64,000 bases of DNA from a virus. Positions 36,880 to 63,620 of this stretch are shown piece after piece (the first letter of the stretch is position 1; every line of letters starts with the position of its first letter). Location: positions 1 to 64,000 of the IMG/VR virus record IMGVR_UViG_3300045988_145683; one strand, written 5' to 3'. The translations under genes were made by a program, and so were the position numbers. The notes beneath the pieces are model-generated. The model was not told the origin of the DNA and did not search any database. It saw only the letters and a program-made list of their open reading frames with translations.

Positions 36880-37730
36880 TAAGCGTAAACTCAGCCCATT
36901 TAAAATCTTTTGAACTGCGCCCGCAGGTGTCTCTATGAAGAGGCTAACGGTTAGGTCTTAATATAATTAGCTGTAATATTAAGATGAGACCGTGCTAAGA
37001 TTCATCATAATATTCATATAAAGGAGGTGCCCTTAATGTGGATATATAAAATAATAAATATTCAAAATAATAAAGTATATATTGGTTAGTCGATTAGACC
37101 AATTAATCAAAGATTCCAAAGACATATAAATGATGCTCTTAATAATATTCTCGATACTCATTTTGCTAGAGCAATAAGAAAATATGGTAAAAAAAATTTT
37201 ATTATAGAAGAAATTGATACAGCCAATACTCAAGAAGAATTAAATGAAAAAGAGCAATATTGGATTAAATATTATGATTCAGTAACAAATGGTTATAATG
37301 AAACAGATGCCATTTCTAAGTGTGGTGGAAATACTTACCAATCTAAAACTGAAAAAGAAATGGAAATTATTAAAGACAAAATTCGACAAACTAAAATAGG
37401 AAGTAAAAATCCTATGGCTAAAAAAATAAAAAGAATAAATATTCTTACTAATGAAGTAGATATTTTTGATACTATTATTAGTTGTGCTAAAGCTTGTGGA
37501 ATTTAGAATGGTAAAACTTCTATTACAGATAGATTAAATGGTAAAATTAAAAGTCCATTTAAAAATACTTGGAAATTTGAATATTATGATGAATAAAGTG
37601 TATCGACTATCCCTGATGAATGTAAGGGAGTAGACTTGGAGATAGGCACCAAGTCGAAGCGGAAGACAACTCTATCTTATAGATAGAATGATAATATAGT
37701 CAGTGCCGATGGTGACATCGGGTAAACATG
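36880..37730 (+). other. group I intron in nrdD with embedded homing endonuclease ORF
   Basis: The NrdD reading frame breaks between ...STMG and CRTANGWDINGF... Internal guide GCCCAT about 12 nt into the insert pairs with exon ATGGGT (U.G at the splice site). The insert ends in G. An RBS+ORF lies in a loop. Compare the T4 nrdD (sunY) intron. Confidence 0.55.
37036..37596 (+). CDS. intron-encoded GIY-YIG homing endonuclease, 2 in-frame TAG codons
   Basis: AAGGAGG RBS. MWIYKIINIQNNKVYIG-Q-SIRPINQRFQRH, with TAG at the invariant Gln (37087). Second TAG at 37504, inside a C-terminal HTH-like tail parallel to the 1025 enzyme. 3' boundary uncertain by about 1 codon. Confidence 0.65.
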
Positions 37731-38741
37731 TGTAGAACTGCAAATGGTTGGGATATTAATGGATTCGGTCAACTTAAAGATGGACGTGGAAATATTTGTC
37801 CTGTTACTATTATTCTTCCTACTCTTGCGATGATGGCCGTTACTCTAAATGAAAATGATAATTGGGATGACTATAAGTCATTATCCCAAGAAGAACGGAC
37901 TAAAATTGGTGTAGAACGATTTATGTCTTTACTCGATAGAAAAATCAATGAAGCACGTATTCAATTAATGGAACGTTTTGAATGGATTTGTTCTCAAGAC
38001 CCAGGCTCCGCGAGATTTATGTATGAAAATAATGTTATGGCAGGTTATGTTCCAGAAGAAGGAATTCGTTCCGCTCTTAAGCACGGAACTCTTGCTATTG
38101 GTCAGTTAGGTTTGGCTGAAACTCTTCAAATTCTTATTGGTAAAGATCATACCACTTCAGAAGGAATGGAATTAGCTAAACGAATTGAACAATTATTTAA
38201 AGATAGATGCGCCGAGTATAAAGAAAAATATAAACTAAATTTTGGAGTTTATTATACGCCCGCAGAAAATCTTTGCTATACTGCTATGACAAAGTTTAAA
38301 GAAAGATACGGCGAAATTCCTAATGTTAGTGATAAAGAGTTTTTTACCAATAGTATTCACGTTCCAGTATGGAAAGAAATGAGTCCATTTGAAAAAATTG
38401 AAATTGAATCTGAATTAACTGGTTATTCCTCCGCAGGATGTATTACCTATGTCGAACTTGATTCTACTGTAAAACATAATATTGATGCTCTTGAAACTAT
38501 TGTCAATTATGCGATGGATCACGATATTCCTTATTTCGCAGTAAACGTTCCTAATGATACTTGCCTTGAATGTGGTTATTGTGATGAATTTAATGATTCT
38601 TGTCCTGAGTGCGGAAGCCACAATATTCAGCAATTGCGTCGTGTGACTGGTTATCTTACAGGCAATTATAAAACTGCTTTTAATTGGGGTAAACAAAAAG
38701 AAGTTGAAGCAAGAGTAAAACATACAGGAGCATTAGAATGA
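37731..38741 (+). CDS. nrdD: NrdD exon 2 (glycyl-radical and zinc-ribbon C-terminal region)
   Basis: Track ORF 37728..38741. CLECGYCDEF...CPECGS zinc ribbon and an RRVTGYLTG glycyl-radical-like motif. TGA stop. Confidence 0.7.
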   Translation, partial: CRTANGWDINGFGQLKDGRGNICPVTIILPTLAMMAVTLNENDNWDDYKSLSQEERTKIGVERFMSLLDRKINEARIQLMERFEWICSQDPGSARFMYENNVMAGYVPEEGIRSALKHGTLAIGQLGLAETLQILIGKDHTTSEGMELAKRIEQLFKDRCAEYKEKYKLNFGVYYTPAENLCYTAMTKFKERYGEIPNVSDKEFFTNSIHVPVWKEMSPFEKIEIESELTGYSSAGCITYVELDSTVKHNIDALETIVNYAMDHDIPYFAVNVPNDTCLECGYCDEFNDSCPECGSHNIQQLRRVTGYLTGNYKTAFNWGKQKEVEARVKHTGALE

Positions 38742-44179: not shown

Positions 44180-44229
44180 AAAAAAAAAATAAGGGAGACA
44201 TTCAGTTAAGAATGTCTCCCTTATTTTTA
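44180..44229. terminator. bidirectional rho-independent terminator
   Basis: Stem AAGGGAGACATTC...GAATGTCTCCCTT flanked by A10 and T-rich runs. Confidence 0.55.
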
Positions 44230-44637
44230 TTGTTTTAAATCATCACTTGGAGTACGATAATTATTTACTGTAGATTCAATTTTCTCTTGTAAATATTTAT
44301 TCAAATCACCAAAAGCGTTATTTAAATACTCTTTAGCATCATCACTCAAAATAAGCAATACTGCTTGATAAGTTTTCTAAAATGCTTCTTTCTAAGCTGC
44401 TTCATCAAACTTACCTTGTTCTTTAAGAGAATTTACATAAGTTTGATTAGTGGCAATAACACAATTAGTAATTGTGTCAGTAGCCATTTGCACATATTTA
44501 TTTAAAATATCGCTATCGGTTTTCTTTTGTAATTCCGCACTTTTTGCTTTAATCCAAATAACTATAAAAGTAGTTAAAGCACCAAGCATAGGAATTAAAC
44601 ACACTTGAAACAATTGATTAATCAAATTTTGATCCAT
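44227..44637 (-). CDS. small membrane protein (holin-like or fibre-assembly factor?), 2 in-frame TAG codons
   Basis: AAAGGAG RBS then ATG 44637. One TM helix. Track ORF ends in TAG 44392. Read-through reaches TAA 44227. Confidence 0.4.
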
Positions 44638-44673: not shown

Positions 44674-45804
44674 TTAAGACCAAGCAACAGGGACATGAGT
44701 CCAAGCGCTAGTCGTTGATTTTCTATATTTTAAATGGCCCGTAGAAGAAGTCGTATCTATCCATAATAATGGCGTAGTTCCAGAAGCAGGTGAAGTTGTA
44801 CCAATATAAATAGCATAATCGGTAGTAGTGCCAATTACTGGAGTTTTATCTATTGTCGCCCAAGCGCCATCAGCACGTAAGTATTTTGTTGTACTACCGT
44901 CTGACTTTGGAACAACACCAGCTTTACTAGTTGAGAATTGAGCTGGGGTGGCATTATCCACATATTTCTTTGTAGCTAACTCCATATCCGCAGTGGGAAC
45001 ATAACTACTATCCATACTAATTCTGCCATCCGCGGTCATTATATTAGATTTATTTTTATATACTGCTTGTGTTACATCATCAGGAACAGTTGCTAATTTA
45101 TCATCAATTTGTTTAATAGCACTACTTACTTTATTATTAATAGTTATTTCAGCATTATCTACTGCTTCCTAAATCTAAGCAATTTTTTCGTCTACATTAA
45201 TCGCGGCAGCTCCTTCAATACCCATAACCGCAAGATAATCATTAGCTTCGCTGGTCCAACCATTTAAAGTAATAACTTTTCCTTTAACAGTATAATGATC
45301 TGTTTCTTTTAACATAATACCATTATAATATAAAGTTAAAGCACTGCTATCATCAAAATCAAAAGGAATGGTAAATGTATTCTAATTTGCTTCTGCTGTA
45401 AACACATATTTATTTACAGGTTTGCTCACTATATTTGCAGGACAAGTCACATTATGCTCAATTCCATTAATATTTATTGTACCAATTTTGCTTCCAGTGT
45501 CATCAATATTTTCATAAGATACTTCTGACAATTCCGCTAAATTACGTCCATTTTCATCATAAGTAGCATAATCTGCATGATCAGTATATAAATTTAATCT
45601 TTTATCTTTAGTATCAATATAAAATTTATGAGTGTCTTCTGTAAAATAAGCATACCCTTCTGTAATAGGAGTACTGTCTACTGTTGTAAATAAAGTTTTT
45701 CCTGAATCTAAGGCAGGAAAAGGAATTTTACCATTAACTACTTCAGCATTATCATAGGAAACTAAATTATTTGAGTCTCCTTTTAAAATTTTAAATAGAG
45801 CCAT
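44674..45804 (-). CDS. tail fibre protein (C-terminal phage tail-fibre-repeat-like ATKKYVD motif)
   Basis: Track ORFs 45382..45804 and 44674..45039 are in the same frame, joined by TAG-punctuated sequence. N-terminal FKILKGDS... domain is shared with two other fibre-like genes. TAA stop 44674. Confidence 0.55.
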
Positions 45805-45836
45805 CGATCTTCAATAACTCCTTTCTATAAATTAAT

Positions 45837-45866
45837 GGTATAGAATTAATTAATAATTCTATACCA
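45837..45866 (-). terminator. possible rho-independent terminator
   Basis: Hairpin GGTATAGAATTA...AATTCTATACC. Weak T-run. Confidence 0.35.
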
Positions 45867-45876
45867 TTTAGTTTAT

Positions 45877-46497
45877 TTATTCAAGAACAATCCAATAAAC
45901 ATCCAACCCATTACCGCCAACAAATCCTTCCAAACGAGCTAAACGCTCCCAAATTTGTTGGACTACTTGACTATCATCAATTACATAATAATCTTCTTCT
46001 TTTACAATAGAATCTAAATTAAGTTTAGAATAAACCTAAAGACTTGCTGGCAATGTGTTTAAATTATATAATAAATTATTAGAATCTTTTTCTATTTTGT
46101 AAAAAGTTATCATATAATTTATATTGCCAGATTTTTTAGTAGCACTATAATTTAAAACCCAAGGAAAAATAATTTTATCTTTATGAGTTAAAGTATCATA
46201 ATATGGAACTGGATAAATGCGTTTTTCATTATCAGCATTAACATACTAAATAATACACATCATATTAGTTAAATCCATAGTGTCAAAATATCTATCTATT
46301 TCAAAATAAATAATTTCAGCAGCATGGTCACCTTCAACTGTAATATAATTATTTTCATTACTAATAGTCCTTGAATTTAAATTTACCTAAACTAATTTTT
46401 CATCTTCTGGAACAGGAAGAGCTGGATATTTAACTGGAAAATTTTCATCTTGTATTTGATGTAAAACACTATAATAATCAGTTGGATTAGTTATCAT
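45877..46497 (-). CDS. virion structural protein paralogous to the N-terminal domain of the 46503..48182 gene (3 in-frame TAG codons)
   Basis: AAGGGG RBS then ATG 46497. Shares ...EGDHAAEIIYFEIDRYFD... with the ...ENDHLAETIYFQIDRYFD... of the upstream gene. TAA at 45877. Not in the >=60-aa track because TAG fragments it. Confidence 0.45.
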
Positions 46498-46502
46498 TTA
46501 TC

Positions 46503-48182
46503 TTACCCCTTAATCTTAAAAGTTCCTGGTTTTGATTTTCTTTCACCTTTCTAGATAATTACAGCTACTTGAGTAATATTTTCATCTACTTCTGTTGAAT
46601 TTTCAGAAGTTGTTTTTTGAGTAAGACCATTCGCATTTTTCCATTGATATTCATAAATACCATTGCCTAACTCACTAGTATTTTCGAGTTTAACAATATA
46701 TTTTCCATTTTCAATTGAAACTTCTTTAATAACAGGAACTAAATTAGTTGGGTCAAAATAATTAGTAAAACTAATTGTAGGATAATCTATATTATCTTTA
46801 TTTTTATAACCATGAACTGATAAAGTATAATTATCCTCTTCAGTTAAAGTTACAGTTTTTTCAGTGCTAAAATCAGAGCCATTCTTTTTCCAAAGATAAG
46901 TACACTGAACGCCTTCATCATTCTATCCAACAGCAGTAATAGTATTAGAAGAACCATAATAACATCCATTATCAGGGGAAGGATCAAGAACAATTCTAAA
47001 ATCTTCACTAATTCCTTCAACAGAAATAGCTAATCCAGCCCATTTAACTTCTTTACTTACTTGATTGGCAGTTGTACCAAATGCGGTAACGCTATAACTT
47101 CCACATCCATCAACTTCGCAGTATTGAACTTTTAGGTAGAGATCGTTTTTCTTAGCAGTATAGTTCTCAAGATTAATATCACTGCTACTATTAATATAAG
47201 AGTCTCCATTTTTAGTGAAATAAGTTAATTTCTCATTATAAACCATATCTCCACTAAAAATACTATTATCTTCAATAATTTTCTTATATTCATAGCCAAT
47301 GCCGCTTTTTAATTCAGTATTAGTTCCTCTATAATTACAAATCCATTTATACTCAATAGTAGTATTATCTGGATTATTTAAAGTATCATTATAAGCTAAA
47401 GCATATAACTTATCACCAGTTAAATAAACTGATTTATTATTTAAAATACTTGTTAAGAAAGCAACATTATCAGGAACACCAAAACCAGCAGATTTCTTTG
47501 AGTCAATTAGGCTTTCTAAATAACCAGTTAAATAATCAACAGGCTAAGCGGTAATTAAATCTTCGTCAATATCTAAAGTTTTATTAATAACCATTTGCGC
47601 TGGTAATGTATTAAATACATACATTAAATTATTATTATCTTTTGGATTCTTTTTAAAGAAAATAATAGAAAACTATAAAGTACCAGATTCACTAGTCACT
47701 TCATCACTAATTTGCCATCCAAAAATCAATTTTCCAGCAGTTCCGATATCAGGACAAATAGCTTCAGAATAACCTTGAACTTGATCGTTTAAATAATACT
47801 AAATATAAATTTTAATATCATCAGCTGCTAAATCTTGTAAATCAAAATATCTATCAATTTGAAAATAAATTGTTTCTGCCAAATGATCGTTTTCAACAGT
47901 AAGTAATTGTGTTTTTCCAAATTCTTTAGTTAATTCAATTTGACGAGTATCAGCATTTATATTTATAATAGGTTCATCTAAAGGTATACGAAGAACAGAT
48001 GGATCTAATTTCTTCATTTGAACGATACCAGTGATATTACTATAATAGTCTTCAATAGATTTTATTTCAACGATTTTTCCATTAACGTTTTTTATTGAAT
48101 TATCTTTAGCTAAAGTATTGATTTTCTTTTGAAGTTCTTCCCATTTAGCTTGTTCGATAACGCTATCATTTTTAACTATCAA
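46503..48182 (-). CDS. virion structural protein (baseplate / receptor-binding-like), TAG-containing
   Basis: GAAAGGAAGAG RBS then TTG 48182. Track ORFs 47799..48182 and 46923..47246 are in the same frame and both end in TAG. Read-through reaches TAA 46503. Confidence 0.5.
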
Positions 48183-48198
48183 ATCTATCTCTTCCTTT

Positions 48199-48250
48199 CT
48201 AAAAAATTAGGTTAAATAGTTTCTTTTCCTATTTAACCTAATTTTTTTTA
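48199..48250 (-). terminator. rho-independent terminator
   Basis: Stem AGGTTAAATAG...CTATTTAACCT with T-runs on both sides. Confidence 0.5.
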
Positions 48251-48277: not shown

Positions 48278-48478
48278 TTAAACCTCATACCATTCTTCTA
48301 ATTCATCCTCGGGAACTAAGGGAGAGATGGAAAAGAATTCTTTTCCATCTCTCGTTAATTTTTTATTATAATCCGCAATTAATCTATATAATTTAGTCGC
48401 AGGCACTCCTGCTAACTATATAGAAGATTCAATAATGCCATTAGAACCCATATATCTATAAACAATTTCTTTTTCCAT
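48278..48478 (-). CDS. small hypothetical protein (1 in-frame TAG)
   Basis: ATG 48478 lies 8 nt downstream of the giant gene's TGA. TAG at 48416. TAA at 48278. Confidence 0.35.
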
Positions 48479-48487
48479 ATTTTATCC

Positions 48488-51400
48488 TCACTTTACAATA
48501 GGTTCTTCTTCAAAGTTTGCTCTATTAGATATCATTGCTTCATAAATTCTATGTAAAGTATTCTTAACACTTTCACCATAACTAGCAACATAATAATATC
48601 TAAAACGACCTGTATATCCATTAGCGACAGTAGGCATACCTGTTTGACGAGGGGTAAAAATATTACCAGAACTATCTACCGTAATCTATTTAATTGGATG
48701 TTTATTAGTGCCAATCTATACTTGAATAGCACCAGTATAACCCTTAAACTAATTACCAGACATATTTAAAATTGTCTAACCAGAGAACGCATTTACATCA
48801 AAGTTAAGAATACCATCTTTACATCCCTCTATAATTAAATTATAAGGAGAATAAGACCCCATCTTACTTTGATAGAATGCTTGAGCTCCAAAAGTCAAAC
48901 CTTCCGTAGAAGAAGAATAAGGAATTATATTATTACGACTTAAAGGACATTGATAAAATGCCTTAATGCCAATTTTCTTTAGACAATCACTAAATTGGAA
49001 ATATTCTAATCCACTATCTAAAATAAAGGCATAATCATCTATTACAGAAATTTTATTACTATCTTTTGGAGCAAAGAATATAGCAGTAATATTAGGATTT
49101 ACTTGAATACCAATTGCTGCTGATGGGTTAACTTGGCTATATTTAATTCTCGTAATTGGCTAACCATTATAAGTTGTAGGTAAAGTAATTTTGCCTTTTA
49201 AATTCTTAGCTAAGTCAGTCATTGCAAATGATAATTCTCCATCAGAATTTATAATATCATAATATTTATGAGTAGCATCATTAGTTAAAATATTATCATA
49301 AACACTAATTGGTTCTCCAACGGCATAAAACTCACGATCGGCATAAGCTAATTGTTTAGTTAAATCAATTTTAACTCCATCTTTATCCGCCCATCCAGTC
49401 TGTCTCCAAGTCCACTCTAATGGGTCTTCACCTTTTGGTAAATCAGTTACTTCTGCATTATTAAAATAATAAAATTCTTCTGGAACAGTAATTCTTTCAC
49501 CATAATTAAATACTTTTTTTACAGTTGAATCATTAATAACACGGTCACCATTGACAAAAGTGATTGTATAAGATTTGCGTTCAAATCTTGCTTTAAAAAC
49601 ATAATCTATTTTATTAGGTTGTAAAGACAAAGAATTCCAATTATTTTTTAAGACGACATCTTCTTCGTTTACATTTTTCCCAACAGTAATTACCAATTCT
49701 CCCGTATCGTCTTCCCAGCCTTTAAAATCATAAGTTGGCATTTTTTCTTGTAAACTACCAAAAGAAATATAAGTTTCACTAGAAAGAATAGTTGGATCAT
49801 CAAAAAACTTATCACTAGATGAAGACAATTTCTAAGTTTTTAAAACTTCCTAAACTATTACTCCATCGACGTCTTCTTTTTCTAAAATAAATTTAGCAGA
49901 ACATTCTTGTTTAACATTTTCTACAAAAATTATTAAATTAGGATATTTATTCTATAACTCATTTTGAATAACTGATTCATCAATTTGATTATTATTTTTT
50001 ATATATATAACACCAGATATTTCTGGTTTATTGGTATTAAGACCTCTATAATTATTATAAACATCAATTAACAAATTATAATCAGTTATTATATTATGTT
50101 CTTCATTATCTCCATTTATTGTATCTAAATAATAAATCTAATTATTTTTAATATCAGATTTTGTTATTTTACTAACCTAATCTTTTGAAATACTTGTTAA
50201 CTAAAAATGTCCGTTATCTCTATAATAAGATTTTTTTTCTGGATCAAGAGCTGTTTTAGTATCAGTTAAAAGTCTATAGGGGCTCCATTGAATATTGCTT
50301 AAATTAATAATACAATTAGATAAATCTAATTTACTATTTTCACTAGCTGAAACATATTTACGCAATAATTTATAACTATTATATCCTAAATTGCCACCTC
50401 GAATATCAAAAGTTTTTATCTCGGTTTTTTCTTGACCTTCAATAGCATCAGTAAGACCCTAAATATATAAACCACGATTTTCATCTAAAATTTCAAGTTT
50501 TCCAGTAGTTGAATTTTTTTCAGGATATACATAATTAGTTATTAATTTCGTTAATAAATTAGCTTCTATTAAACTTAAATAATTTGTTCGATTGGTTAAA
50601 TATAAAGTATTTAAAGCTACTCCAGGAGCAAAATTAACTCTTGGAATATTAGATTTAGTATTTCTAAAGTTTTCAAGCTTTTCGCTCTTAGTTAAATCTA
50701 ATGCTCCTTGGTCTTTTTTAAAGTTAATATTGCAAAGATTCATTTCTTTAAGTAAAGGCATTCCGCCTTTTGAGAAAGACCAATCGTTTACATCATTATT
50801 AAAATATTCATTACCACTTTCATCTTTCCCGTCATACCCTAATAACAAATCAGTTAAACGCTCCATTTTTCCTTCAGCAGCAAATTCTTGGAAATATAAT
50901 TTACTTAAATCACCGAGAGATTTCATTTGATCCATTCCATAAATATAATATAATTGTTCTTTATAATTACCGCTACTTATAATTCCTTTTTTAATATCAG
51001 GAGCTACATATTTAACTGGTTCTAAACCATTATATTTCTTTGAAGGAAAATTCTCTCCATCTGTACCAATAGTAACATAGGCATTGCGCGCGGGCTCCAT
51101 ACTAATCCAATATTCGCCATCAAACATATGATTTTTTTCTTCAAATTCAGCATTATTTTTCCAATATTGAGAATTTGTAATTAATCCATCCATATTCTAA
51201 GTATTAGTGCCTTCAATCCATTTATCAGATGTATTTTTAGGATTATTTGCAGAAATACGGCTTCTAATATAACTTCCTCCACCATTTCTGGCATAAGTAC
51301 CAACAGTTAACCAAGAGTCAATATAATTAAGACGATTGGCTAAAAATTGCGCACGATAAAGATTTCTATCTCCTTGTAAAGCATAAAAATATTTATCATC

Positions 51401-54400
51401 TTCAACCTCATATGACCCTCCGTCAGTTAAGCGACCAAACACTGGCATATTTTCAGCTTTAGAATTTGTTGGAATAATATACTTAAATTCTTCATCTAAA
51501 CTTAAAGCAATAATTGGTCGATCTCCCAAAGCAGCGTAGCTATCAAGAAATACTGATGGATCAGTACGATACCATTTATCTACAATATCACTTTTTTTAG
51601 CCCCGCTTCCGGCTCCTTTAGTAAAAATTTTATTTACTCTTGAATCATTTGGGCTATAAGAATTATTTTGAGTTCCCATTAATTGCTTATACTTATCCAC
51701 CATCTTACTTCTAAAGAAAGTGTAAAAATTATTCCAAAGAACACTATCGTTAGTTGAAAAACTTCCTTCTTCAGTAGCATCAATATAGTATTCAAAAGAT
51801 GGAATACCAGTATTATTAATACCTAATTGAGTATCAATATCATAAAAGATAGGATACCAAACATAATGTTGTTTGCCAGTAGATTTTTGAACATTGCCTT
51901 TTTGAGGCCCCCAAGAAGCAAACATTGCATTTTTTCCACGAGAATCATAACATTCAAAAATTTCTGTCATTAAAAGGTAAGAAGCTAAATATTCAATATC
52001 AAAGAAATTACTTAATTCATTTTTAAATTTAGCTTGACGGTATTCTTTACTATCTTTAGTATAAGTAATAGAGCCATAGGTTACTGGGTTAGGTAATTTC
52101 CATCTTTCCTCAATACCTTCTTCATTTTTATTAAAAGAATAATAATCTAAAGAAGAATTAAATTTATCAGAACTTAATACATAAATTTCATTTTTACTAT
52201 CAGTTAAAAGATAATAAATATTTGCTTTATATACTTTATCTGAATTATTTGTAAGTTTTATGCTTACATACTTTAAACTATTATTTTCATTAATCTACTT
52301 ATAATATCTTGTTTCAGAGTTATATTCTTCAGAAGCTAATTTATAAATAATTTTTCCATTTTCATTAACTCCATCTTCAACATAATAGACATTAGGAGCA
52401 TATATGGCTTCAGCTAATCCATCAACTTTAGTATAAACGCCCATAGATGGAATTTTTAATGTCTATCCATCATCAAATTCAATATCGCAATCTAAACAAG
52501 TACTCCATACCCAACTAACTGCGTCTTCCCAGTTAGACATTAAAGCTAAGAGCAATTCTTGTTTACTTGTATCATTAGCAACATTAAATTCTATTTCTTC
52601 TCCATCTGGATTCTTTATAATCCATTTAATAGATTTTACACCAGTAATTTCATCAACTATTTCTTTTTTAGTAAGTCTATCTGGGGCTACATTTTTTAAT
52701 TCTTCCTCAACAATCTTAGTCTATGTCCCATCTGGATCAAGCCATTCTTTTAAACTAAATAAATTATCAGCAATTAAATCATCATTTGGATTATATCTAG
52801 GCTCAAAAGAATCAATAACTTTTGGCGCACCTTTAATTAATTCAGGATTATCTCCGTCTGGAGGTATTACCATATTAGGATTTCTAAATGATAATTTATA
52901 ACGATTCCAAGGATCACGGAAAGAACAGAAAGTTCTTGAATTGTTCTAAAATTCCCAACATTCTGCTATATCTCTTACTTTAGGATTGCCCGTAATTTGA
53001 TTTTGTAAAATCTCTTTATTTGGTTTAAATCCAAAACATTCATCTGATCCTTTATCTAATAACATATTATATTTGCCAATAAAAATACAGTTATTACTAT
53101 TTTCCTTAGAGTAAGTATTATCATCGTTGGACATATAGTGGAAAGCTAAGACGGGGAATCCTTTTACCGAAGTGCGATAATCTTCTAAATTTCCATATAA
53201 ATTATAATTATCAAAAGAATCTTTATAGTCTTCTACTGGATGTTTAGAATAAATCTCGTTAACTAAATTAGCAAATCCTCTATTATAATCTCCAGAAGAT
53301 TCCATAAAATCTATCTTTAAAGTAAATTTAGTAGTACCAACTGTCTTATTATCCATATAAAACCATTCTAAATAGCAAGGATGTTTAGTTATATCTTCAT
53401 TATACTAATCTCCTGCTTTTTTATATTCTTCAGCAAATGGACCTCTATTTAAAAGCATTGATTCTTTGCATTTAGCTTTATAGTTACGACGAGGATAAAA
53501 TTGTGAAGAAGTGCCTTGAACTTGGAAAGTACACCCATTAAGAACAGTTATAAAACTAGGGCAATGATGTATATAATAATTCTATACAGCAGTATATTTT
53601 ATTATTTCTAACCCCGTCTCTTTATTTTTTTCAATTACAGGTTTCCATCCTTCTTTTATAGCAACTTTTTCTAATTCGCCACTATTATAAGCAGCATCTA
53701 AAGCCGTATTAACAAATTCTAAAGTTCCTTCCTAACTTCCTTTTGCTTTAGAATAAGGTAGTCTATTATCTGTGTTGTTTTTATTATTTTTAGTAGTTCT
53801 TAAAATAATATAAGGCATTAAAGGATCAGTAGGGTGATTATCATTATACTTTTTCATTTTAGTATAAGAGAATACATCGTCTTTTAATACCATATTGTTC
53901 TCATAAAGGTCTTTTTGATCCCATTGTTTTATACTTCTTTTATCAAAAGCATAATTTTGGACTATTTCAGGAATGGTTAAATCTGTATCATAAACTCTAA
54001 TACTATAAATATCAATATCACAAGTATTAGACATAAATTTAATGAAATCAGAATCAATATTCCAAACATCACTACTACAACGTACAACACTAGTTAAAAC
54101 GCCATTCATAAAAATTTCTAATAATTTAGAATTTCCGCCTTCTATATCACTTTTCTTTTTAGTATAAACAAATGAAAGATTTAACATTTCATTTTCAATA
54201 AAATCAACTGAAACTGTCTCTTGAGCGCCATTAGCCGTAAATACAGCATCCTATGGACTAAAATAAATACCAGGAGAAACAGAGCTTCCTAATTTACCAT
54301 ATGCACAGACTAAATTCTTTAAATTAAAATCTTGTTCTATTTTATTATACTCTAAATCATCATAGCTATAATTAGTTGTCGGTAAATATTCTTTAGTTAA

Positions 54401-56233
54401 AAACTCATCATAATTAAGATATTTATTTTGAGCTTTAAATTTATCCCAAGCATCATCATCTTCCCAATTATCTCTACTTACTTTATATCTAGTATATTTA
54501 GTTATAACTTTAGCATAATTTTGAGGATTCTTTATTTTAAATTGAATCTCAATAGTAGCAGATGATGATCCATCTTTAAAAGCCATTTTTCCGACTGGGA
54601 TAGATACTTCAGCACCATTGCTTACTCGTAAACAAGTCGTATTATTTTCATCAAAAACCCAACCATTATTATACCAATTAAAATTTTTAAATTCTACATA
54701 TTTATTATTATTAATTAAATAAGTTTCACGGCCTAATTTTCCCTCTGAATTAGAACGACCAGTAGCTATAAAATTAACTTTTAAATTATCTTTTTTTGCT
54801 AATTTCATATCTCTTAAAGGATCAATCAAAATTGTAAAATTAAAATTACGAGAATAAGAATAAGGATCAGTACCAACTTTAATAGTATAATAAGAACTAT
54901 CATCTACAGTTAAATTAGTAATTTCCCAATATTGCCATTCTCTAACTTGTGAACTATCTAATTCTCTAGTTCCTACTTGGACGCCATTCTTATAAAGAAT
55001 TATAAAAGCTCCATTATTATTTGGGTCTAATACTTTAAAAGGAATTCTTATTGTCTCATAAGTATAATATTCTGTCTTAAAATCTTGCACCCAAATTAAA
55101 GGCATTTTATTGCCTGGTTCTTGAATAACAATTTCCTTTTGAATAAAATCTGTTCCCGCGCCTTTTTTAGAATTATTCATTAAATACAACTTTGCTTTTA
55201 TTATATGCTCACCATGAGTAAAATAATTTTTTAAAGTAGAAACTTTGTCAACCCCTAATATATTTGTATCAGGAGTAATAACAAAAGAATCTTCAGAAGA
55301 AGAATCAGTATCACTATAAGTTCTATCTAAAACTAAATAATCATCAAAATAAACTTCAACAGATCTGGCGATATCTTCAGACATTAACCAACTAACAGAT
55401 ATTTGTTCATTATCAATTGGACTATCATTACTAAAACTACTTTCTTTCCAATTAAAAGAAAGATGATGTTTATTAATATTAATAGTATCAGAGCTTTTCT
55501 AAAATCTATTATTTTCTTTATCAGGATTATAATAAATACTAAAATTAATTTCACTAGAACATGAATTTCTTAAAATATTAGTTAAATCAATTTCTTGCGG
55601 AATATTGTGCTCATAAGTAGTAGGAGGAGAAGTATAATAAATTTCTTTTTCTGTAGCACTTTTAATTTCGCTTATAGTTATAATTCCTTGCACAGAAGAA
55701 GATTGCGGAACGCCACCAACAGTTCTACATTTAACCAAAACTTTTACTTTAACATTTTCTTCATTTAAGATATCAACAGGGCTGTCAGATGGAATTCTTG
55801 TTAAAGAAACAGTTCCTAAAACTTTTTGTTCAGAGTCTCCTTCTCCGCCACCGCCTGCCCCAGCGACAGTTAATTTTTCACATCTCGCACATTCTTCGCG
55901 GTTTTCATTTAAAGCAAAACCTAAAATTCGATAAAAACATCCGTCTAAATTTAAAATTAAATCATCTATATGACAATTTGTTATAGATAATTTTGATAAA
56001 AGAATTAAATAAGCCACTGGGTTTTCATCCGCATCATATTCAATTTCCACAGTATTATCTGTACCGTAAATTACCTGAACACCACTAGACCCTATTGGCA
56101 TTTTATTTTCAGTTGCCGTATCTAAATAAACTCGGCCTGTATCTGTTGCCACATAAAAATATCCATCGCTTTGAGGATATTCTTTTATTTTTTCTTCTGG
56201 GCCCTATACAGGACGAAAACGTATCTTAGACAT
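48488..56233 (-). CDS. giant virion structural protein (about 2580 aa; tail fibre / adhesin-like), more than 20 in-frame TAG codons
   Basis: GAAAGGAG RBS then ATG 56233. Track ORFs 55499..56152, 54251..55384, 53732..54187, 52946..53356, 51197..51970, 50459..51193 and 49160..49828 are all in one frame and all end in TAG. The gap 51971-52945 was checked codon by codon and holds only TAGs (52295, 52463, 52721). The first non-TAG stop is TGA 48488. Composition is beta-rich, N/T/S/Y-rich. Confidence 0.6.
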
Positions 56234-56252
56234 AATTTACTCCTTTCTATCC

Positions 56253-56290
56253 TAAAAAAAATATGGGGAAAGAATATTTCATCTTTCCCC
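56253..56290 (-). terminator. rho-independent terminator
   Basis: GGGGAAAGA...TCTTTCCCC stem followed on the minus strand by T8. Confidence 0.55.
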
Positions 56291-56351
56291 ATAAAAACAT
56301 TCTTCTATATAAAATAGAAAAAATTATATTTATTATTAAATAGTATTGCCC

Positions 56352-57998
56352 TTAGAATGTTCCCCACTCTAACTCAAAATTAACTTTAGCATCATCAGTC
56401 TTAGTTGCCGCAGAAACATTAACTTTTAAGCTATTACTAGTGAAAACAAGTGGTTTACCTTCAAGATCAGCACCAGCAACTTTAAGATTAGGAATTAAAG
56501 TATCAGTACCATTTACTGTATAATCTGCGTTGGCAATTTCTTGGTGAGTATTCTTTACAGTAAATGTTTTTTTAGTAGATTTAATTACATGGCCTTGAGC
56601 ATCAATTTCAGTTGGTTCATTAATAACAATAGTCTACTCATCGGCATAATTTTGAGAGACTGGAGTATTCACAGTTAAAGTATTACTGTGTTTAATAGTA
56701 ATTTCTTTCACTACTGAACCAGTTTGAGCCTTTACTTCTAACTCAATACCTTCTTCACCTTTAAGGACATAATTTAAAAGTTCTTTAGTAGGACCAAGCT
56801 TAATAATAAATCCAGCATTACTGTTATCATCAGCTCCTTCGACCTCAGTAACAGGATCATCAGCAGAAGGAACATAAGTCCAACTAATAGTACCAGTAAT
56901 AACACCATCAACTTCTTTGCCAGAAGCGATAATTAAATCTCCAGGACGTAAGTAATGACCGTTCCAAAGAGTGTCTTCAGCGCCAGTATAAATAAAGGTA
57001 TTACCTTTAGCAATTTCAGTAATATCAGCGCTATCATAAATAATGGCTCCATCTTTAACCTAGAATCCGCCACGGAATATCATAGCGTTAATAGTTCTAA
57101 GCTGATTATCAATATCTTGTTTACTATAAACAGGAAGAGTTAAAACACCATCTTTAAATTTATAACTGCCATCCTTGCCTTCTAAAGCAATTTCTGGATC
57201 AATATCAGCAGATAAAGTTGTACTATTATCAGCTCCTTCAACACCAGGACCGCTAATAGAAGCAGTAAAACCAGTACCATTAGCGTGATTAATTACGTTG
57301 ATATCATTAACTGCTTTATCAACACTTAAAGTATAACTACCAGCGGGGTTTTCAGCAATATTAACATTACTGCCAGCGATAATATTAAAATTACCCGCAT
57401 CAGTATCAGCATTTTTTAAATTAACATTTAAAGTTTTATCACTTAAAGAAGAGCTTAATTGATAATTAATTCCTTTTAAACTCAGTTTAACAGTGTCTAC
57501 ACCTTTATCATCAACTGCAGGAATTGCTTCCACTTGAATATAATCGCTACCAATAATATCATAAGTCTCAGTAATAATATTACCACTACTATCAGCAATA
57601 GTATTAGTTATAGAAACTCCATTAGGTTTTTCAGGATTACTATTTACTGATACATTACTATTTTTTTTACTAGTATCTAAAACAGTATCAGTGTTAGTTT
57701 GAATCCAACCTTTACCATTATTAATACATAAGATATTTTTATCTTTTACATAATAAAATTCGCCAGCAGTATTTTGGTTAAAACTTTGAGGTAAACCTGC
57801 GGTAGTATCAACTACATTAATACCTTGATTTACAGGAACACAATTATTTTCATCTACACCATAATAAAGACGACTTGGTTTTTTATAATCATCAGCGGAT
57901 TTATTATCATTAATTACTAAATAAAACGCACCAGGTTTATATCTACCTGCCACCTTTTCAAATTCGGCTTGAGAACCTTTTAAAAACTTAACGTTCAA
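56352..57998 (-). CDS. tail-fibre-like structural protein (about 548 aa), TAG-containing
   Basis: AAAGGAGTG RBS then TTG 57998. Track ORF 57060..57998 ends in TAG. Read-through reaches TAA 56352. N-terminal VKFLKGSQAEFEKV...GAFYLV domain is shared with two other fibre-like genes. Confidence 0.5.
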
Positions 57999-58012
57999 TC
58001 TTTTTCACTCCT

Positions 58013-58594
58013 TTAAATATCAGTCCAAGAAACAGTTTGTTCAACTGCTTCAACACGAGTTACCAAATTATCAGGACCCTTATCTACTAAATATTTATTA
58101 GCTATATTAATTGTTTCAATATCTCCCTAAGTTAATGTTCCTACTGGCATATCAATCCATGTACCAGCATCAGTAAGAATATGTTTTCCTTTAGTTTCAT
58201 GTAAAGAAACTGGAACTAAACCCGGAACCGTACCCTTAAAAACAGGAGCTAATTTAGCTAAATTTTCTTCCGTAGATAATTTTTCAACAATAGAATTAAT
58301 TAAAGTTTCATTATTTTCTAAGCCCTAATTAACCCATTTTTTTTGTTCTTCGTTATAAATTAAAACTTGATTTGTTTTAACTTCATTGAGAACAATATCA
58401 CTTAAATCGCTTAACTTACCCCCGGAACTAATTCCACCGCAAATTAAACGACTACCTAAATAAAGTTCTCCAGAAGAATCATTTTCCCCATAAATAAAAT
58501 ATAAAGTATCATTGTCTCTTTTGGTTCCTAAACTTTCAAAAGCAGTTTTAGAACCTCTAACAAATTTTACATATTTATTTAATGTATTAGGCAA
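58013..58594 (-). CDS. fibre-like protein sharing the conserved N-terminal domain (2 in-frame TAG codons)
   Basis: GAAAGGAG RBS then TTG 58594. VKFVRGSKTAFESL...TLYFIYG. Track ORF ends in TAG 58325. Read-through reaches TAA 58013. Confidence 0.45.
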
Positions 58595-58643
58595 GATAAT
58601 CGACTCCTTTCTATTATTTATAAAATCTTTTTAATCAATACTA

Positions 58644-58675
58644 AAAGGGTTTGGCCTATTAAGACCAAACCCTTT
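58644..58675 (-). terminator. possible rho-independent terminator
   Basis: Stem AAGGGTTTGG...CCAAACCCTT. Modest U-tract. Confidence 0.4.
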
Positions 58676-58682
58676 ATTTAAA

Positions 58683-60959
58683 TTAAGTTGTTTCAGATGG
58701 AGTATCAGTATTGTTTGAATTTTTCTTTAAAGCATCAACATCAGTTCTTAATCCAGTAATTAAATCATTTAATTCTGTATCTTTATCCTATAATGCTTTA
58801 ATAGTTTTATTCAATTCCGCGTTTTTAGTTTGTAAAACTACAATTAAATCAAACATTCCTGCTACTGTTTTAGCTCCATTATCTCCAGAAGTCGCATTAT
58901 ATGTAAGACCACGCACTGCGCTTTCATTTAATTTGCCACTTGCTAAAGTATTTATATCAGCTAATGTGCCAGTATAGCCACCTAAAAGATTAGTTTTTAA
59001 AGTATTTAAACTACTCATAGTAGCTACTTTATTACTATTGCTATAAGTTCCATCAAAAGCAATAGGTAAATCACTTTCTTGTAAAGCACTTCTTGAAACA
59101 GTTATTAAACCATCTTTTTCTTCTACTGCCGTAACAAATTGTTTATCTACTTTATTATCAGTTTTATCTAATTTATCAATAGCCTATTTAATACTATAAG
59201 CAACAGAATTAGTCGTAGATACAGTTCCATTTAATACATCAATTTTATCACTTAAATTGCTAATACTATCTCTATCAGCATTAATTCCCTATCTTAATCC
59301 ATAAAGAGTCGGGATAGTATCTTTACCAAAACTATTGTTAGATTGACCTAATAGAGTATTATATTTACTATCACTATTATCAATTAATTTACTAATACTA
59401 TCATTAAGAGTTGTATCTTTAGTAATAGTATTTAATTTATTGTTAATAATATACCCTTTGCCTAATGCTAAAGTTCCTAAATAAGATTTCTCACTACTTA
59501 AAGCTCCAGTAGTATCAGTAAAATTTAAAGAAGTAAAAACATTACCTTCTTTAGTATTAGTATAAGAGCCTTTTGGAATACTAACTGAAAATGTTTCTTC
59601 TTTTACAATATGTCCCGCTCTATCAGTAAATAATTTAGGTAAAGTAATAGAAGAACCAAAAGTACCAAAATCAACATCTTTGCCATAGCTTTTTGATGCT
59701 TTACTTACATCTAAATTATTATGAGTAATTTTAATAACTCCACTATTCTTCTCAATGTTCGCATCTACTGAAATCAAATTATCTCCTTCGATAGTCGCAG
59801 ATTTCATATAATTATCATTAATATCATTATCAGTTTCAGTAGAAAAATAAATAAGTTTATTAGTATCTAATTTATCTAAACTCATTTTTCTATTAAGGGT
59901 ATTCAAAGCACCTTTAATATTAGTTTTATCAAAATTAGTAGTAGAATCATCGCGATTTTGACCGTAAAGCAAGTCATAGGTATCACATACTGCATTACCA
60001 AGAGCAGGAAGCTTTACAACAAGAGATTTGCGGTCGTAGCCGTCTTCGATCGGCTCACCAACAACATTATCCTATGCTACATTATAATAAAATCTATATC
60101 CTGACTAACTTAATTTATAATTAATACTATTTTTTGTAGTATTATCGTAAGAACGTTTTGTTTTACTAAATCCTTCTTTATTATAATAAATATTATTATC
60201 GTCTAAATCAAGCTGGAAATTAGTAGGAACTCTTAATTTATAAAGTAAATTCGTGCTACTTTGATCTGTGGTTATCGCAGGTCCAAGCTCACTTTCTAAA
60301 TAATAAACGCGCCCCTCAGTTTTAGTATCATTATTATCTAATTTATAATGACTATCAGTTTCATCATAATAATAATACTTACCTGGTTGGTATACAATAC
60401 TAGCATTATCAATCGCAACATAGGGATCTTGAGGAAGTAGTGGGTAAATTGAAAAATTAGGAACAACAGTATTTAATTCAGCAATCTAAACATAAGTCTC
60501 TTGATTATTGATGTATTGTTTTATCCAAACTGTAGAATCATAACCGCGACCATAAACAGGATAATCTATTTGATAATTTAAATTATACTATTCATCATCG
60601 ACTCTATCATTAGTAATTCTAGTGAGATATTTCCACTCTTTAGTCCCGCTCGCGGTTACATTTCCCACATATAAATACCATTGGTTGCTTCTTTTAACTT
60701 TTACTAATTTTCCATTCTCACATAAAATAATATGAGAATCACTTCTATCAGAAGGATCATCATACATAATTTTATTATCAAGATATCCTACTAAATATTG
60801 AGTAGCAGGAAGGCCATATTCAACTAAAACATAGCGTCCTAAAAATATACCATCACTCGTACAACTATTATCCATTTGAAGTCTATTGCTATAAATTTTA
60901 TCAAAAGTAAAGGTTGTTTTTGAAGTATTAGTTATATTACCATAAAAACCCATTATCAA
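58683..60959 (-). CDS. large virion structural protein (about 758 aa), TAG-containing
   Basis: TTG 60959 overlaps the upstream TGA. Track ORFs 60588..60959, 59289..59972 and 58788..59018 are in one frame and all end in TAG. The gap 59973-60587 was checked and holds only TAGs (60072, 60105, 60486). TAA at 58683. Confidence 0.5.
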
Positions 60960-61313: not shown

Positions 61314-63620
61314 TTAATATACTCTTGATATCGCTTTGGTGGCACTAATAGACATTGAACCATTATAAGTTAATGGAATAGTTATTTTATTAACTAAATA
61401 TTCTCCTTCAACGCCACTTCTTTTATCTTCAATATAAATTCTATTATTAGGCTCTAAATAATAAACTGGAATAGTAGAAATTGAAACGCTCTCCGCACAG
61501 TAAGCAGTCGTATAGAGCAAATCCTCAATCTCATCAACTGCGCTTTTACCCTTAGAACTAATCTTAAAATAATTATCATATCCAGAAGGGATATTGATCC
61601 AAATATATCCACTTTCTGTTGGATAGTTATTCTAAATAATAGAATCATAATCAGTCTATGTCATAAATAATACATCAGGTGTATCTCTATAACATATAAC
61701 TTTTACATTAGTATCATTAATTGCTTTTGTTCTATCTCCAATTAATTGGACTGAATATTTAGCAATATCCGCATTTTCTTCCCCAATAAAATCAAACCAG
61801 AAATTTAAATTCTCAGGATTATTTTTTACTTCTTCCTTGAAATCTAATTTATCATAATCATAAATATCTCTCCAAAAGGAGAATAAATCTACATAATAAG
61901 TCTCATAACCAGTTATTCCAGAAGGATAGAGGTCAGGATTCGCGGTCGCCACTTTACTGGTAAAATCATCTGCATAATTATATTGATAATAATCTACAGC
62001 CATACGATATAGAACTTCGCGCCAATCGCAATAAATAACTCCTGGTTCATTTTCACTTCGATACCACTTATTTTTATAAGTTTTTTGTTCTAATTGCGGA
62101 TTCATAGTATCAAAAATATCATTATTATACATTGTAGATTTATATCTATTTATATCATTATCATTTACAATAATCGTAGTATACTAAATAGGCTTTTGGT
62201 CTATCGCGTATCTTAGATGAATAGGAATCTCAGCACCACTCGCACTTTCTCTCTATCCCCAAATAGAAAAATCATTTCTTAAATTAGCAATCTGTGGAGT
62301 GTTGTTAAAAGAAATAATTGTCTATCCGTCTCTAAATGAATAAATTGAAGATGAAGAATAAACTGCAGGCTCAATATAACTATCTCCATTAGAATTATTC
62401 ACTATACTAGTCCAAGACTAATATTCATAAAATTTCTTTCTTTGGAAAATAAATCTACCATCTATATCATAATAATATTCAAAACAACTTAACATATTTT
62501 TAATTTTGTCTAACACGCTAGCCACATTTTCACCAACACTTGTAATAAGTTCTCCTGCATAGACTAAATCACAAATACGATAACCAACTGTTTCATTAGT
62601 TGTTCGACTTATAATAGTATAAATAGTTCCGTTATTTACCAGTCTTACTTTAGTCGGTTCAGAAGCGTCATCTAATAATTTATTACTATCTAAATTATCG
62701 AATTTAATACTACTCATATCAGTTATTTTATTATTATTTACATCTAATAAATCTGGCAATATCCCTATTGAAGCATTAACTATTCTATTAGTTTGCGCGT
62801 CTTTAAAAAAATACATAGTTTCATCACATTTATTAGCCAATAATTCATAACCATATTGATCTAAATCATTAATAACTATATTACTTTCTTTTTCTTTGCC
62901 ATAAACTGTAAGAAGTTTTTTAATAATAGTCTAAATAGGAATTTGAATTAAATTTAAATAACTTTCTCTTAAATAGTATTCTCTATTACTAAATTCTTCT
63001 TCATCTAAAACGTAATAAGTGGTTTGTTTATTCTAAGTAGAAATATAATAAACGTTATGTTTCTTAGCTTCTTCCTCACTATTGACAATATAGCAATATT
63101 TACCTTTTATATAGTTATCTTTAGTTATATTATCTTGTTTATTATAAGTATAAGTAATTACTTCTTCCTATCCAAAATCTATAGAAGCAGGTAAATCTCC
63201 TCCCAAATCTCCATTTAATAAACACATTTTGTCTTTACCTTGAATAGAAATGCTATATGAGCTAGCACTTTGAGAAGTATTAAAAGACGTAATTAAATAA
63301 ATGCCTTGATTAAACCAAATAATATCTGGATATTTATTATCAATTTTATTTTCTAATCCAATAGCCAAACTAAACTTAGAATTTAAACCCCAAGAATATT
63401 GTTTATATAATTTCTCATTTGTGGCCATAGTAAGAGAACAAGACCGGCGGACCGCAGATGTTCCATCAATATTAATTGATCCACCGGTTATCTTACCCTC
63501 TATACTTTCTATTGGTAATTCATCAAATGTTAGTAATTCAATACGAGCATAAACTACTTTATGTTTAAATTCATCTAACTTTTTAAGAAAGTCGGTATCA
63601 TATTGTCTTTGAGTCTTCAT
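61314..63620 (-). CDS. large structural protein (about 768 aa; baseplate-like), TAG-containing
   Basis: Track ORFs 63168..63620, 62418..62840, 61656..62132 and 61314..61520 are in one frame. The three upstream ones end in TAG. The gap 61521-61655 was checked and holds only TAGs (61632, 61656). TAA stop 61314. Confidence 0.45.

Follow-up and report, generated by a model that had tools for sequence, protein, structure and literature searches.

A single, very long gene was recognised at positions 48488 to 56233 on the minus strand of a 64,000-nucleotide stretch of viral DNA (hereafter the window; positions 1 to 64,000 of the IMG/VR record IMGVR_UViG_3300045988_145683). The source is a human-gut tailed phage of ~160-197 kb that uses genetic code 15. 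As judged from sequence comparisons, it is almost certain that this region is one translated gene whose in-frame TAG codons are read as glutamine (Gln). The statement as a whole, that this is a late gene of a code-15 phage and that it makes a giant, adhesin-like protein of the tail module with a CotH-type kinase fold, is considered probable.

The reverse complement of 48488-56233 is 7,746 nucleotides (nt) long, is divisible by three, starts with ATG and ends with TGA. A preliminary description had proposed a continuous frame from ATG 56233 to TGA 48488 in which TAG was the only internal stop, with the segments 49829-50458 and 53357-53731 left unchecked. A scan of the whole frame found no internal TAA or TGA, in these two segments or elsewhere. 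The upstream in-frame stop is separated from the ATG by one codon. The two alternative frames of the same strand contained 128 and 404 TAA/TGA codons, and with such counts at 30.6% GC (guanine plus cytosine) an open frame of 2,581 codons cannot have arisen by chance. The gene, its TAG codons and the signals in front of it are as follows.

48488-56233, minus strand: giant gene of 2,581 codons, ATG at 56233-56231, TGA at 48490-48488, with 23 in-frame TAG codons read as Gln
48686-56206, minus strand: span of the 23 in-frame TAG codons
TAG codons 1-8, minus strand: first bases at 56206, 55501, 54253, 53734, 53584, 53407, 52948, 52723
TAG codons 9-16, minus strand: first bases at 52465, 52297, 51199, 50461, 50203, 50179, 50140, 49954
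TAG codons 17-23, minus strand: first bases at 49852, 49834, 49162, 48778, 48751, 48718, 48688
56240-56246, minus strand: Shine-Dalgarno-like AAAGGAG predicted from the sequence, 6 nt upstream of the ATG
56262-56293, minus strand: terminator-like hairpin (12-bp stem, then T8) between the upstream fibre-like gene and the giant gene
49160-49828, 50459-51193, 51197-51970, 52946-53356, 53732-54187, 54251-55384 and 55499-56152, minus strand: open reading frames (ORFs) under the standard code

Under the standard code, exactly seven minus-strand ORFs of at least 60 amino acids (aa) were present within the giant gene, all in frame with 48488, a number that agrees with the seven ORFs of the preliminary description. 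They are 136-377 aa long and jointly cover 62% of the gene, so that a standard-code annotation would report this part as seven unrelated hypothetical proteins and would leave the other 38% without any ORF of at least 60 aa. With code 15, the coverage of the window by ORFs of at least 100 codons rose from 64.5% to 89.5%. The earlier view that the gene is visible only when TAG is read as sense holds for the frame itself, which needs it; protein collections, however, already contain the 2,58x-aa product. The giant protein was rich in N (9.0%), K (8.1%), S (7.7%), Y (6.5%) and T (6.2%), in agreement with the N/T/S/Y-rich product described before, and also in I and D; the K/I/D-richness is expected from the genome GC content. 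Terminator-like hairpins were found at 5 sites across the scanned region (1.9 expected), and sigma-70-like promoter matches showed no excess there (60, against 51.8 +/- 7.9 in shuffled sequences). A small ORF of ~66 codons with one TAG (48278-48476, minus strand) directly follows the giant-gene TGA. Past it, and before the next gene, a hairpin with a T-run lies at ~48205-48240. The gene after this hairpin has an apparent TTG start near 48181, preceded by a AGAAAGGAAG motif.

The frame was conserved in relatives. Orthologues were collected from 17 loci (L049-L065) on IMG/VR contigs of 68-197 kb. All 17 had the ATG at the same place, 2,564-2,651 codons up to a TGA, 24-40 TAG codons and no TAA or TGA. 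The ratio of nonsynonymous to synonymous substitution rates (dN/dS, omega) between the window gene and close orthologues was 0.08-0.12. Of the 13 TAG-bounded stretches with 60 codons or more, 12 differed enough for an estimate, and in all of these omega was below 0.35, the C-terminal ones included; for aa 2134-2582 the value was 0.07-0.13, which corresponds to selection as strong at the C-terminus as at the N-terminus. This low omega along the TAG-bounded segments indicates selection on translation from end to end. A true stop at TAG, with seven or more small independent genes or the decayed pseudogene of a large one in this place, would be suggested by the existence of the seven ORFs with ATG, GTG or TTG starts and by the lack of a suppressor transfer RNA (tRNA) in the window. 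All seven ORFs, however, are in the same frame, and neither TAA nor TGA interrupts it in the gaps; the 17 orthologues preserve this frame, and their TAG positions exchange with CAA/CAG; omega is ~0.1 also in segments outside the seven ORFs; and single domains cross TAG sites, such as the CotH-like domain described below (aa 885-1560), which contains 5 TAG. The genes for RecJ, the tail protein and the holin, among others, require the same read-through. The shared frame, the orthologues, the omega values and the TAG-spanning domains rule out a row of small genes or a pseudogene, the probability of which is considered negligible.

The meaning of TAG was assessed in a codon alignment in which 83 columns carried TAG in at least one genome. 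The alternative codons at these columns were CAA in 55 and CAG in 12 (67 for Gln codons), with AAA (13), GAA (9) and all Ser codons together (14) as minor alternatives, and TAT or TAC was never found at any of the 83. Since CAA is two substitutions away from TAG, the exchange of these two codons points to amino-acid equivalence and not to mutational proximity. In homologues of no more than 38% identity, Gln was the commonest residue at the 23 TAG columns of the window gene (15.9% against a background of 3.0%, a five-fold enrichment), a value close to that at columns where the window has CAA or CAG (14.9%). TAG codon 661 aligned with Gln in 50 of 60 distant homologues, among them the NCBI-sourced P0068 and P0071. 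Reading TAG as Gln, that is, genetic code 15, is well supported by these comparisons.

No tRNA of any kind was found in the 64-kb window, and none in ~110 kb of related loci around it. The tRNA search was extended leftwards along related contigs, and two arrays were reached. The first (Thr, Ser, Ser, Leu, Gly, Lys, Cys, Met) contained no CUA tRNA, and Rfam added no tRNA there. The content of the second varied among six relatives, with Ile, Val, CUA tRNA and Tyr present in all six.

L128:5210-5299: tRNA(CUA), 90 nt, conserved in six relatives (also in L125, L126, L127, L129 and L151)

On contig IMGVR_UViG_3300045988_126226, this tRNA is ~44 kb left of the point that corresponds to window base 1. 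The relatives bearing it are 91-100% identical at the marker gene used to retrieve their loci, and from such close relatives a copy is expected in the genome of the window phage. The variable arm of the tRNA(CUA) measures ~20 nt, U1.U72 is mismatched, and residue 73 is a G (G73). Its best match among the phage tRNAs was the neighbouring tRNA-Tyr at 63% identity, and it is no recent copy. Judging from the comparison of TAG and Gln columns, it is presumably charged with Gln. The decoding proposed here has three points to its disadvantage: the window itself is free of tRNA genes, the tRNA(CUA) was found in relatives only, and its long variable arm is unusual for a tRNA-Gln. If a class-II-shaped tRNA(CUA) does insert Gln, this would be an unusual solution to tRNA identity.

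These features of the tRNA could also mean that the frame is a single ORF in which TAG is decoded as another amino acid (e.g., Ser, Leu or Tyr). The tRNA(CUA), with its 90 nt and ~20-nt variable arm, is class II-like, and it adjoins a 90-nt tRNA-Tyr with an anticodon stem-loop that is the same except at position 34. In bacterial tRNA identity, G73 fits tRNA-Ser, and U1, a weak 1-72 pair and G73 together fit tRNA-Gln as well. Against a residue other than Gln, TAT and TAC are missing from the TAG columns, Ser codons occupy 14 columns compared with 67 for Gln although Ser is ~3 times commoner than Gln in the protein, and TAG 661 is aligned to a near-invariant Gln. TAG to Gln, which was validated by proteomics in crAss-like phages, is also the only phage amber reassignment with proteomic support (PMC9523058). 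Decoding as a residue other than Gln is accordingly regarded as very improbable.

In relatives L125 and L129, the two tRNA arrays are ~11 kb apart. The tRNA sets of the relatives are large (at least 21 different anticodons across the scanned loci), and their content differs between near-identical genomes. A RAGATH-33 RNA (Rfam RF03102; 123.3 bits against a gathering score of 120.4, E=8.5e-26) was detected at L121:1958-2086 (minus strand), beside a tRNA-Leu(UAA) inside a phage tRNA array.

The number of TAG codons sets a demand on decoding. By arithmetic (p^23), the full-length yield would be 9% at a read-through of 90% per TAG, 50% at 97% and 79% at 99%. Together with a tape-measure-like ORF with 77 TAG in relatives, these yields argue for near-complete late reassignment and not for leaky suppression. 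With only partial read-through, the locus would yield a ladder of N-terminal fragments, with the full-length protein as a minor product, and the TAGs would serve as attenuators. In favour of such an outcome, less than ~97% per site leaves under half of the chains full length with 23 TAG, the host release factor 1 is presumably still there, and the ~150 kb of inspected related sequence, in which part of the ORFs were searched, showed no release-factor gene. The omega of 0.07-0.13 at aa 2134-2582, equal to selection at the N-terminus, speaks against it, as do the need of the 77-TAG ORF for near-complete reassignment and the frequency of TAG in the late arm (27% of the Gln-type codons), which is far too high for leaky stops. 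Partial read-through is thus considered improbable, and near-complete reassignment of TAG to Gln in the late genes is preferred.

Recoding was unevenly distributed over the window. The plus-strand arm (1-41.9 kb) carries genes of replication and nucleotide metabolism (PolIII alpha, GyrB, GyrA, ATP-dependent ligase, PhoH, DnaB, RecJ, a PIF1-type helicase and a split NrdD), and the minus-strand arm (41.9-64 kb) carries late genes, including a phrog_1887 tail protein, fibre-like ORFs and a phrog_13712 holin. In the late arm, all 14 gene models contained TAG, which made up 27% of the Gln-type codons; in the early arm, this was the case for 15 of 36 gene models and 10% of the Gln-type codons. The PolIII alpha gene had no TAG among 48 Gln codons, the RecJ gene had 6 and a lysozyme/amidase gene had 9. 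TAG read-through was required for the full-length reading of each of RecJ, the tail protein, the holin and the giant gene. Retranslation with code 15 raised the coverage of the minus-strand late arm by ORFs of at least 100 codons from 48.9% to 94.0%. In recoded gut phages, structural and lysis genes have been reported to be recoded, and replication genes variably so (bioRxiv 10.1101/2021.08.26.457843); the TAG-rich late arm and TAG-poor early arm of the window reproduce this pattern. The nearest GenBank phages for PolIII alpha were SPbeta-like Bacillus phages (39% identity), a similarity that hints at a Firmicutes host.

The two arms converge: the plus-strand early genes end at 41884 and the minus-strand late genes at 41919. 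The GC skew changes sign between 40 and 44 kb. The lysozyme/amidase gene (6261-7562, plus strand; Phage_lysozyme2 plus Amidase_2 according to the annotation of relatives) lies amid TAG-free replication genes, and its 9 TAG account for 36% of the Gln-type codons in it, in line with the published proposal that lysis functions are held back until the code switch.

The giant protein could be divided into the following regions, several of them by transfer from homologues.

56054-56233, minus strand (aa 1-60): N-terminal ~60 aa with the family-consensus motif IRFRPVQG...GYFYVATDTGRVYLD
~aa 124-131: Gly-rich linker
53864-54796, minus strand (~aa 480-790): LamG/concanavalin-A-like region, transferred by alignment, with no direct match
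51554-53581, minus strand (~aa 885-1560): CotH-type atypical protein-kinase-fold domain, predicted by fold comparison
52064-52786, minus strand (~aa 1150-1390): beta-rich insertion in the CotH-like domain
49304-49786, minus strand (~aa 2150-2310): Listeria-Bacteroides-repeat (Flg_new)-like segment, transferred by alignment
48674-49216, minus strand (~aa 2340-2520): C-terminal BspA-type leucine-rich repeat (LRR) region

The LamG-like region was placed by a Pfam Laminin_G_3 match in the homologue P0079, which maps to window aa 655-757, and the Flg_new segment by matches in 3 of 20 homologues, that of P0068 mapping to window aa 2222-2253. For the LRR region, Pfam LRR_5 (PF13306) on the window protein itself (aa 2393-2455; E=0.003) scored 17.9 bits, below the cut-off of 27.7. 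LRR_5 was found in 12 of 20 homologues at E<=0.01 (best E=1e-63), and at the C-terminal end the BspA-like LRR structures 4fs7 (E=7e-27) and 4gt6 were matched by the family profile. A PDB sequence search with the window protein gave no match, and the NCBIfam scan yielded nothing useful. The protein collection holds the giant family as full-length unnamed proteins of 2,000-2,900 aa. Among these, P0001 is 97% identical to the window protein (2,582 aa; 401 member sequences, on contigs of up to 193 kb). The gene callers behind the collection must therefore already have read through TAG. A profile of the central region retrieved 4,637 clusters at 50% identity with E<=1e-3 (1,616 with E<=1e-30), and in nearly all of them the central domain was at about residues 800-1700 of a protein of 2-2.9 thousand aa.

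The conserved core of this family resembled a CotH-type kinase. The Pfam CotH cut-off of 23.8 bits was exceeded by the remote homologues P0079 (47.3) and P0083 (31.8), the matching segments of which align to window aa 1075-1556. At the gathering score, Pfam CotH matched neither the window protein nor P0001. PDB sequence searches with the central-domain profile and with the P0079 core gave no CotH match, and the likeness was therefore revealed by fold comparison only. A fragment of P0001, 98% identical to the window, was modelled with AlphaFold2 from a 31-row alignment of full-length homologues, and according to this model the core of the giant protein has the three-dimensional fold of CotH, with 12% sequence identity to 5JDA. 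An earlier AlphaFold2 run with a 13-sequence alignment (pLDDT, the predicted local distance difference test, of 51.5; no meaningful Foldseek match) was discarded. The preliminary description had suggested looking for beta-helix, Ig-like or lectin-like domains; the conserved core is modelled as an atypical kinase, and not as a beta-helix or a simple fibre.

The residues Q906-G-T-S-S910, K973, D1430, K1434, N1435, Y1464, D1465 and D1467 were unchanged in every alignment (up to 73 sequences), the last six within motifs of the form D1430-x-R-x-K-N1435 and Y-D1465-x-D1467. D975 was invariant in the alignments of 13 and 20 sequences and at least 90% conserved in larger ones. By hand count, 22-24 residues separate the two Asp motifs of the short homologue P0079. 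CotH of B. subtilis is inactivated by D228Q or D251A (PMC7821199). The pattern of residues in the giant protein is compatible with an active kinase, and the domain may be active. Characterised CotH kinases (PF08757; 5JD9/5JDA of B. cereus; catalytic D228 and D251 in B. subtilis, PMC7821199) differ from the giant protein, which has no Pfam CotH match of its own. They are spore-coat proteins of ~360 aa, whereas here the domain is part of a 2,581-aa multidomain tail-module protein and carries a beta-rich insertion of ~240 aa.

CotH-family domains of phages fused to hypervariable C-type lectin domains, the targets of diversity-generating retroelements (DGRs), have been called 'currently unstudied' (PMC8008677). 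In a tblastn search, the giant protein matched a hypothetical protein of Bacteroides phage p00 and relatives over aa 1392-1665 (22-26% identity, E ~1e-8). These matches to 'Hankyphage' p00-type phages correspond to the C-lobe of the CotH-like domain, which thus recurs in phage late regions, and they fit the remark on CotH/C-type-lectin proteins (PMC8008677). Unlike the Hankyphage-type/DGR proteins, the giant protein ends in a conserved BspA-type LRR, and no C-type lectin end was seen. A DGR/C-type-lectin architecture was rejected for this C-terminus, and the annotated genes included neither a reverse transcriptase nor any sign of a DGR.

The surroundings of the giant gene were those of a tail module. 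In related loci, the late operon past the right edge of the window comprises, in order, a virion structural protein (phrog_2729), the ORF L089:5069-13321 with 2,750 codons and 77 TAG, a 1,134-aa ORF (23 TAG) and a 963-aa ORF (15 TAG), the end of which is the right edge of the window (63.6-64.0 kb). The 2,750-codon ORF is probably tape-measure-like, from its position and coiled-coil-rich composition, and in L089 it is larger and more heavily recoded than the giant gene. Within the window the operon continues as follows.

61314-63620, minus strand: tail protein, 768 aa, 9 TAG (phrog_1887 'tail protein', E=7e-11; phrog_32343, E=1e-43)
Between the 768-aa tail protein and the three fibre-like ORFs, minus strand: 114-aa ORF
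56352-60953, minus strand: three fibre-like late ORFs (58683-60953, 58013-58630 and 56352-58004), each with in-frame TAG, directly upstream of the giant gene
44674-48206, minus strand: three late ORFs (46503-48206, 45877-46497 and 44674-45804) directly downstream of the giant gene
44227-44637, minus strand: holin, 2 TAG (phrog_13712, E=4e-37), at the start of the lysis genes after the tail module

The ORF 44674-45804 is fibre-like, with a C-terminus that is found again in relatives, in a second fibre cluster. The order of tape-measure-like ORF, tail protein, fibre-like ORFs, giant gene and holin places the giant gene where baseplate, fibre and receptor-binding genes are usually found, in the tail module and near the lysis genes. 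A motif of the form F-x-(K/R)-G ... Y-F ... L-Y, similar to the N-terminus of the giant protein, opens four neighbouring fibre-like ORFs, a likeness that is weak; in one of these, 58013-58630, the motif had a weak Pfam Phage_tail_C match (E=4e-4, below the cut-off).

The second fibre-like cluster of the relatives is located beside the tRNA(CUA) (L128:6481-21168). Four of its ORFs open with the classic 'GE-G-E-DTGK-K-GDG...W' tail-fibre N-terminus, and one ORF has Listeria-Bacteroides-type repeats. The C-terminal half of L128:16750-17844 is also present in window gene 44674-45804. The repertoire of appendages that this phage encodes seems to be unusually rich.

The giant gene also varied between relatives. 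Two versions were found, either 95-97% identical to the window or ~70%, and both occurred in genomes with PolIII alpha 97-99% and the 768-aa tail protein 95-98% identical. Between the alleles, the first 100 aa were 80% identical and the last ~380 aa 91-97%, and over aa 100-2200 identity per 100 aa ranged from 44 to 88%. Faster divergence and cassette exchange, which are looked for in an appendage, were thus observed at aa 100-2200 and not at the C-terminal tip. The conserved C-terminal end may mark a recombination boundary. This apparent cassette-like replacement is of a kind typical of host-interaction genes.

It is likely that the giant protein is a virion appendage, with its presence in the virion and host binding predicted from sequence. 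This agrees with the earlier proposal of a structural, tail-fibre- or adhesin-like product: the tail-module position, the BspA-type LRR and Listeria-Bacteroides-repeat-like parts and the cassette-like divergence all point in that direction. Several observations weigh against this and against the kinase assignment. Receptor-binding tips are usually variable, whereas the C-terminal LRR end is conserved. The resemblance between the N-termini of the giant protein and of 44674-45804 is weak (BLASTP E=0.025). The direct PHROG matches of the window protein were limited to 14959 (E=1.7e-49) and 24896 (E=1.6e-25), both of unknown function, and no fibre, spike or receptor-binding protein family scored above the cut-off in Pfam, PHROG, NCBIfam or PDB sequence searches. 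The fold model was made from a 98%-identical homologue fragment and not from the exact window sequence, its N-lobe was of moderate confidence, and the catalytic assignment is drawn solely from the pattern of conservation.

Some of these observations would suit a full-length protein that is not a tail appendage and that serves as a non-virion or ejected effector (e.g., an intracellular kinase with host or phage proteins as targets) or as a decoration protein that attaches to gut mucus and not to the bacterial host. The conserved core is an enzyme fold with invariant active-site-like residues, tail-fibre families are without a match, BspA-type LRR and Ig/LamG-like modules are also known from proteins binding to animal-host surfaces, and the conserved C-terminus is atypical of a receptor-binding tip. 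Such a role is nevertheless judged unlikely: the gene has fibre-like ORFs on both sides within the tail module and the holin downstream, shares its N-terminal motif, if weakly, with neighbouring fibre-like ORFs, and is replaced in a cassette-like manner in otherwise near-identical genomes. Its 2.6-thousand-aa size and modular repeats are also typical of phage appendages.

With the appendage reading preferred, the gene at 56233-48488 (minus strand) would be expressed as one late gene from its own ribosome-binding site, and the 23 TAG would be read through most likely by the phage tRNA(CUA), encoded in relatives in the array ~44 kb to the left of the window, to give a product of 2,581 residues. 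This product would most likely be a giant virion appendage or adhesin in the tail/host-recognition module. The N-terminal motif common to it and the neighbouring fibre-like proteins may serve as an anchor. LamG-like and beta-rich modules would follow, with a central CotH-type kinase-fold domain, whose active-site-like residues do not vary within the family, and a C-terminal end made up of a Listeria-Bacteroides-repeat and a BspA-type LRR, parts of a kind that serve surface adhesion in gut bacteria. Early genes such as that for PolIII alpha could be made by the unmodified host, and late genes would need the phage tRNA(CUA). The many TAGs might thereby couple expression of the giant gene to the late, code-switched state, as in the model of Borges et al.

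Recoding of this kind is already known, and the window phage is another lineage showing it. Like the code-15 gut phages described before (Lak, crAss-like, 'Jade/Sapphire/Agate'; bioRxiv 10.1101/2021.08.26.457843), it is from the human gut and low in GC, has a phage tRNA(CUA) in its relatives, and has TAG in structural and lysis genes, variably in replication genes and not in PolIII alpha. Its size (160-197 kb) is within the range of the large recoded clades (154-210 kb; bioRxiv 10.1101/2021.08.26.457843), a likeness in size and not a clade placement. The phAss-1 group has also been listed among gut phages recoded from TAG to Gln (PMC10607447). The window lineage differs in the long variable arm of its tRNA(CUA), and no release-factor/synthetase 'code-change module' was seen in the inspected parts of it. 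The giant gene had no nucleotide match by blastn in 50,697 GenBank phage records, and tblastn of the protein against GenBank phages gave remote matches only (<=25% identity; 22-26% at the p00-type phages). PHROG 14959 has a profile of 2,494 positions, i.e., a giant phage protein; the best stretches for PHROGs 14959 and 24896 were only aa 1393-1663 and 568-1071, and both families are without functional annotation. The C-terminal ~180 aa are alike, at the level of the family profile, to BspA-type LRR proteins of gut and oral bacteria (LRR_5; 4fs7, 4gt6, 4h09), but the LRR region makes up only a small fraction of the far larger phage protein. In the searchable literature there seems to be no description of the LamG/CotH/LRR architecture in a 2.6-thousand-aa protein of a recoded phage, nor of the size of the family.

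The giant gut-phage tail-module proteins form a widespread and unnamed family, which is here annotated for the first time at the level of domains, with a predicted CotH kinase fold flanked by adhesin-type repeats. That the giant protein typifies a large unnamed family (4,637 clusters at 50% identity, mostly of 2,000-2,900 aa) with a catalytically competent CotH-type kinase is a tentative and rather doubtful proposal, drawn from conserved residues. If true, phages might display or deliver a protein kinase at the cell surface within their adsorption apparatus, or the enzyme may be a morphogenetic kinase that patterns their own fibres, as CotH does for the spore coat. Annotation of such a recoded phage with the standard code would lower the long-ORF coverage of the late arm from 94% to 49%. 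The 23-TAG giant gene and the 77-TAG tape-measure-like ORF together set a demanding lower bound on read-through efficiency. Its behaviour as an exchangeable cassette makes the giant gene a candidate host-range determinant of these ~190-kb human-gut phages, which are without a cultured representative.

Two further observations concerned the early arm. The nrdD gene, for anaerobic ribonucleotide reductase, is present as two ORFs (35849-36913 and 37728-38741, plus strand), split by a GIY-YIG homing-endonuclease ORF (37036-37596; 2 TAG). A group I intron was considered and rejected, as Rfam gave no match there at the gathering score or at E<=1, and the arrangement therefore looks like a 'gene in pieces' and not an intron. 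Relatives had further GIY-YIG insertions, with gyrB split in L069. An SPFH/Band-7 (flotillin-like) gene at 2637-4022 (plus strand) had a local GC content of 41.5%, compared with ~30% elsewhere, and used 19 CAG and 2 CAA, the opposite of the phage usage; from this composition it looks recently acquired. Exactly the same SPFH/Band-7 protein was present in 72 index blocks of the assembly collection.

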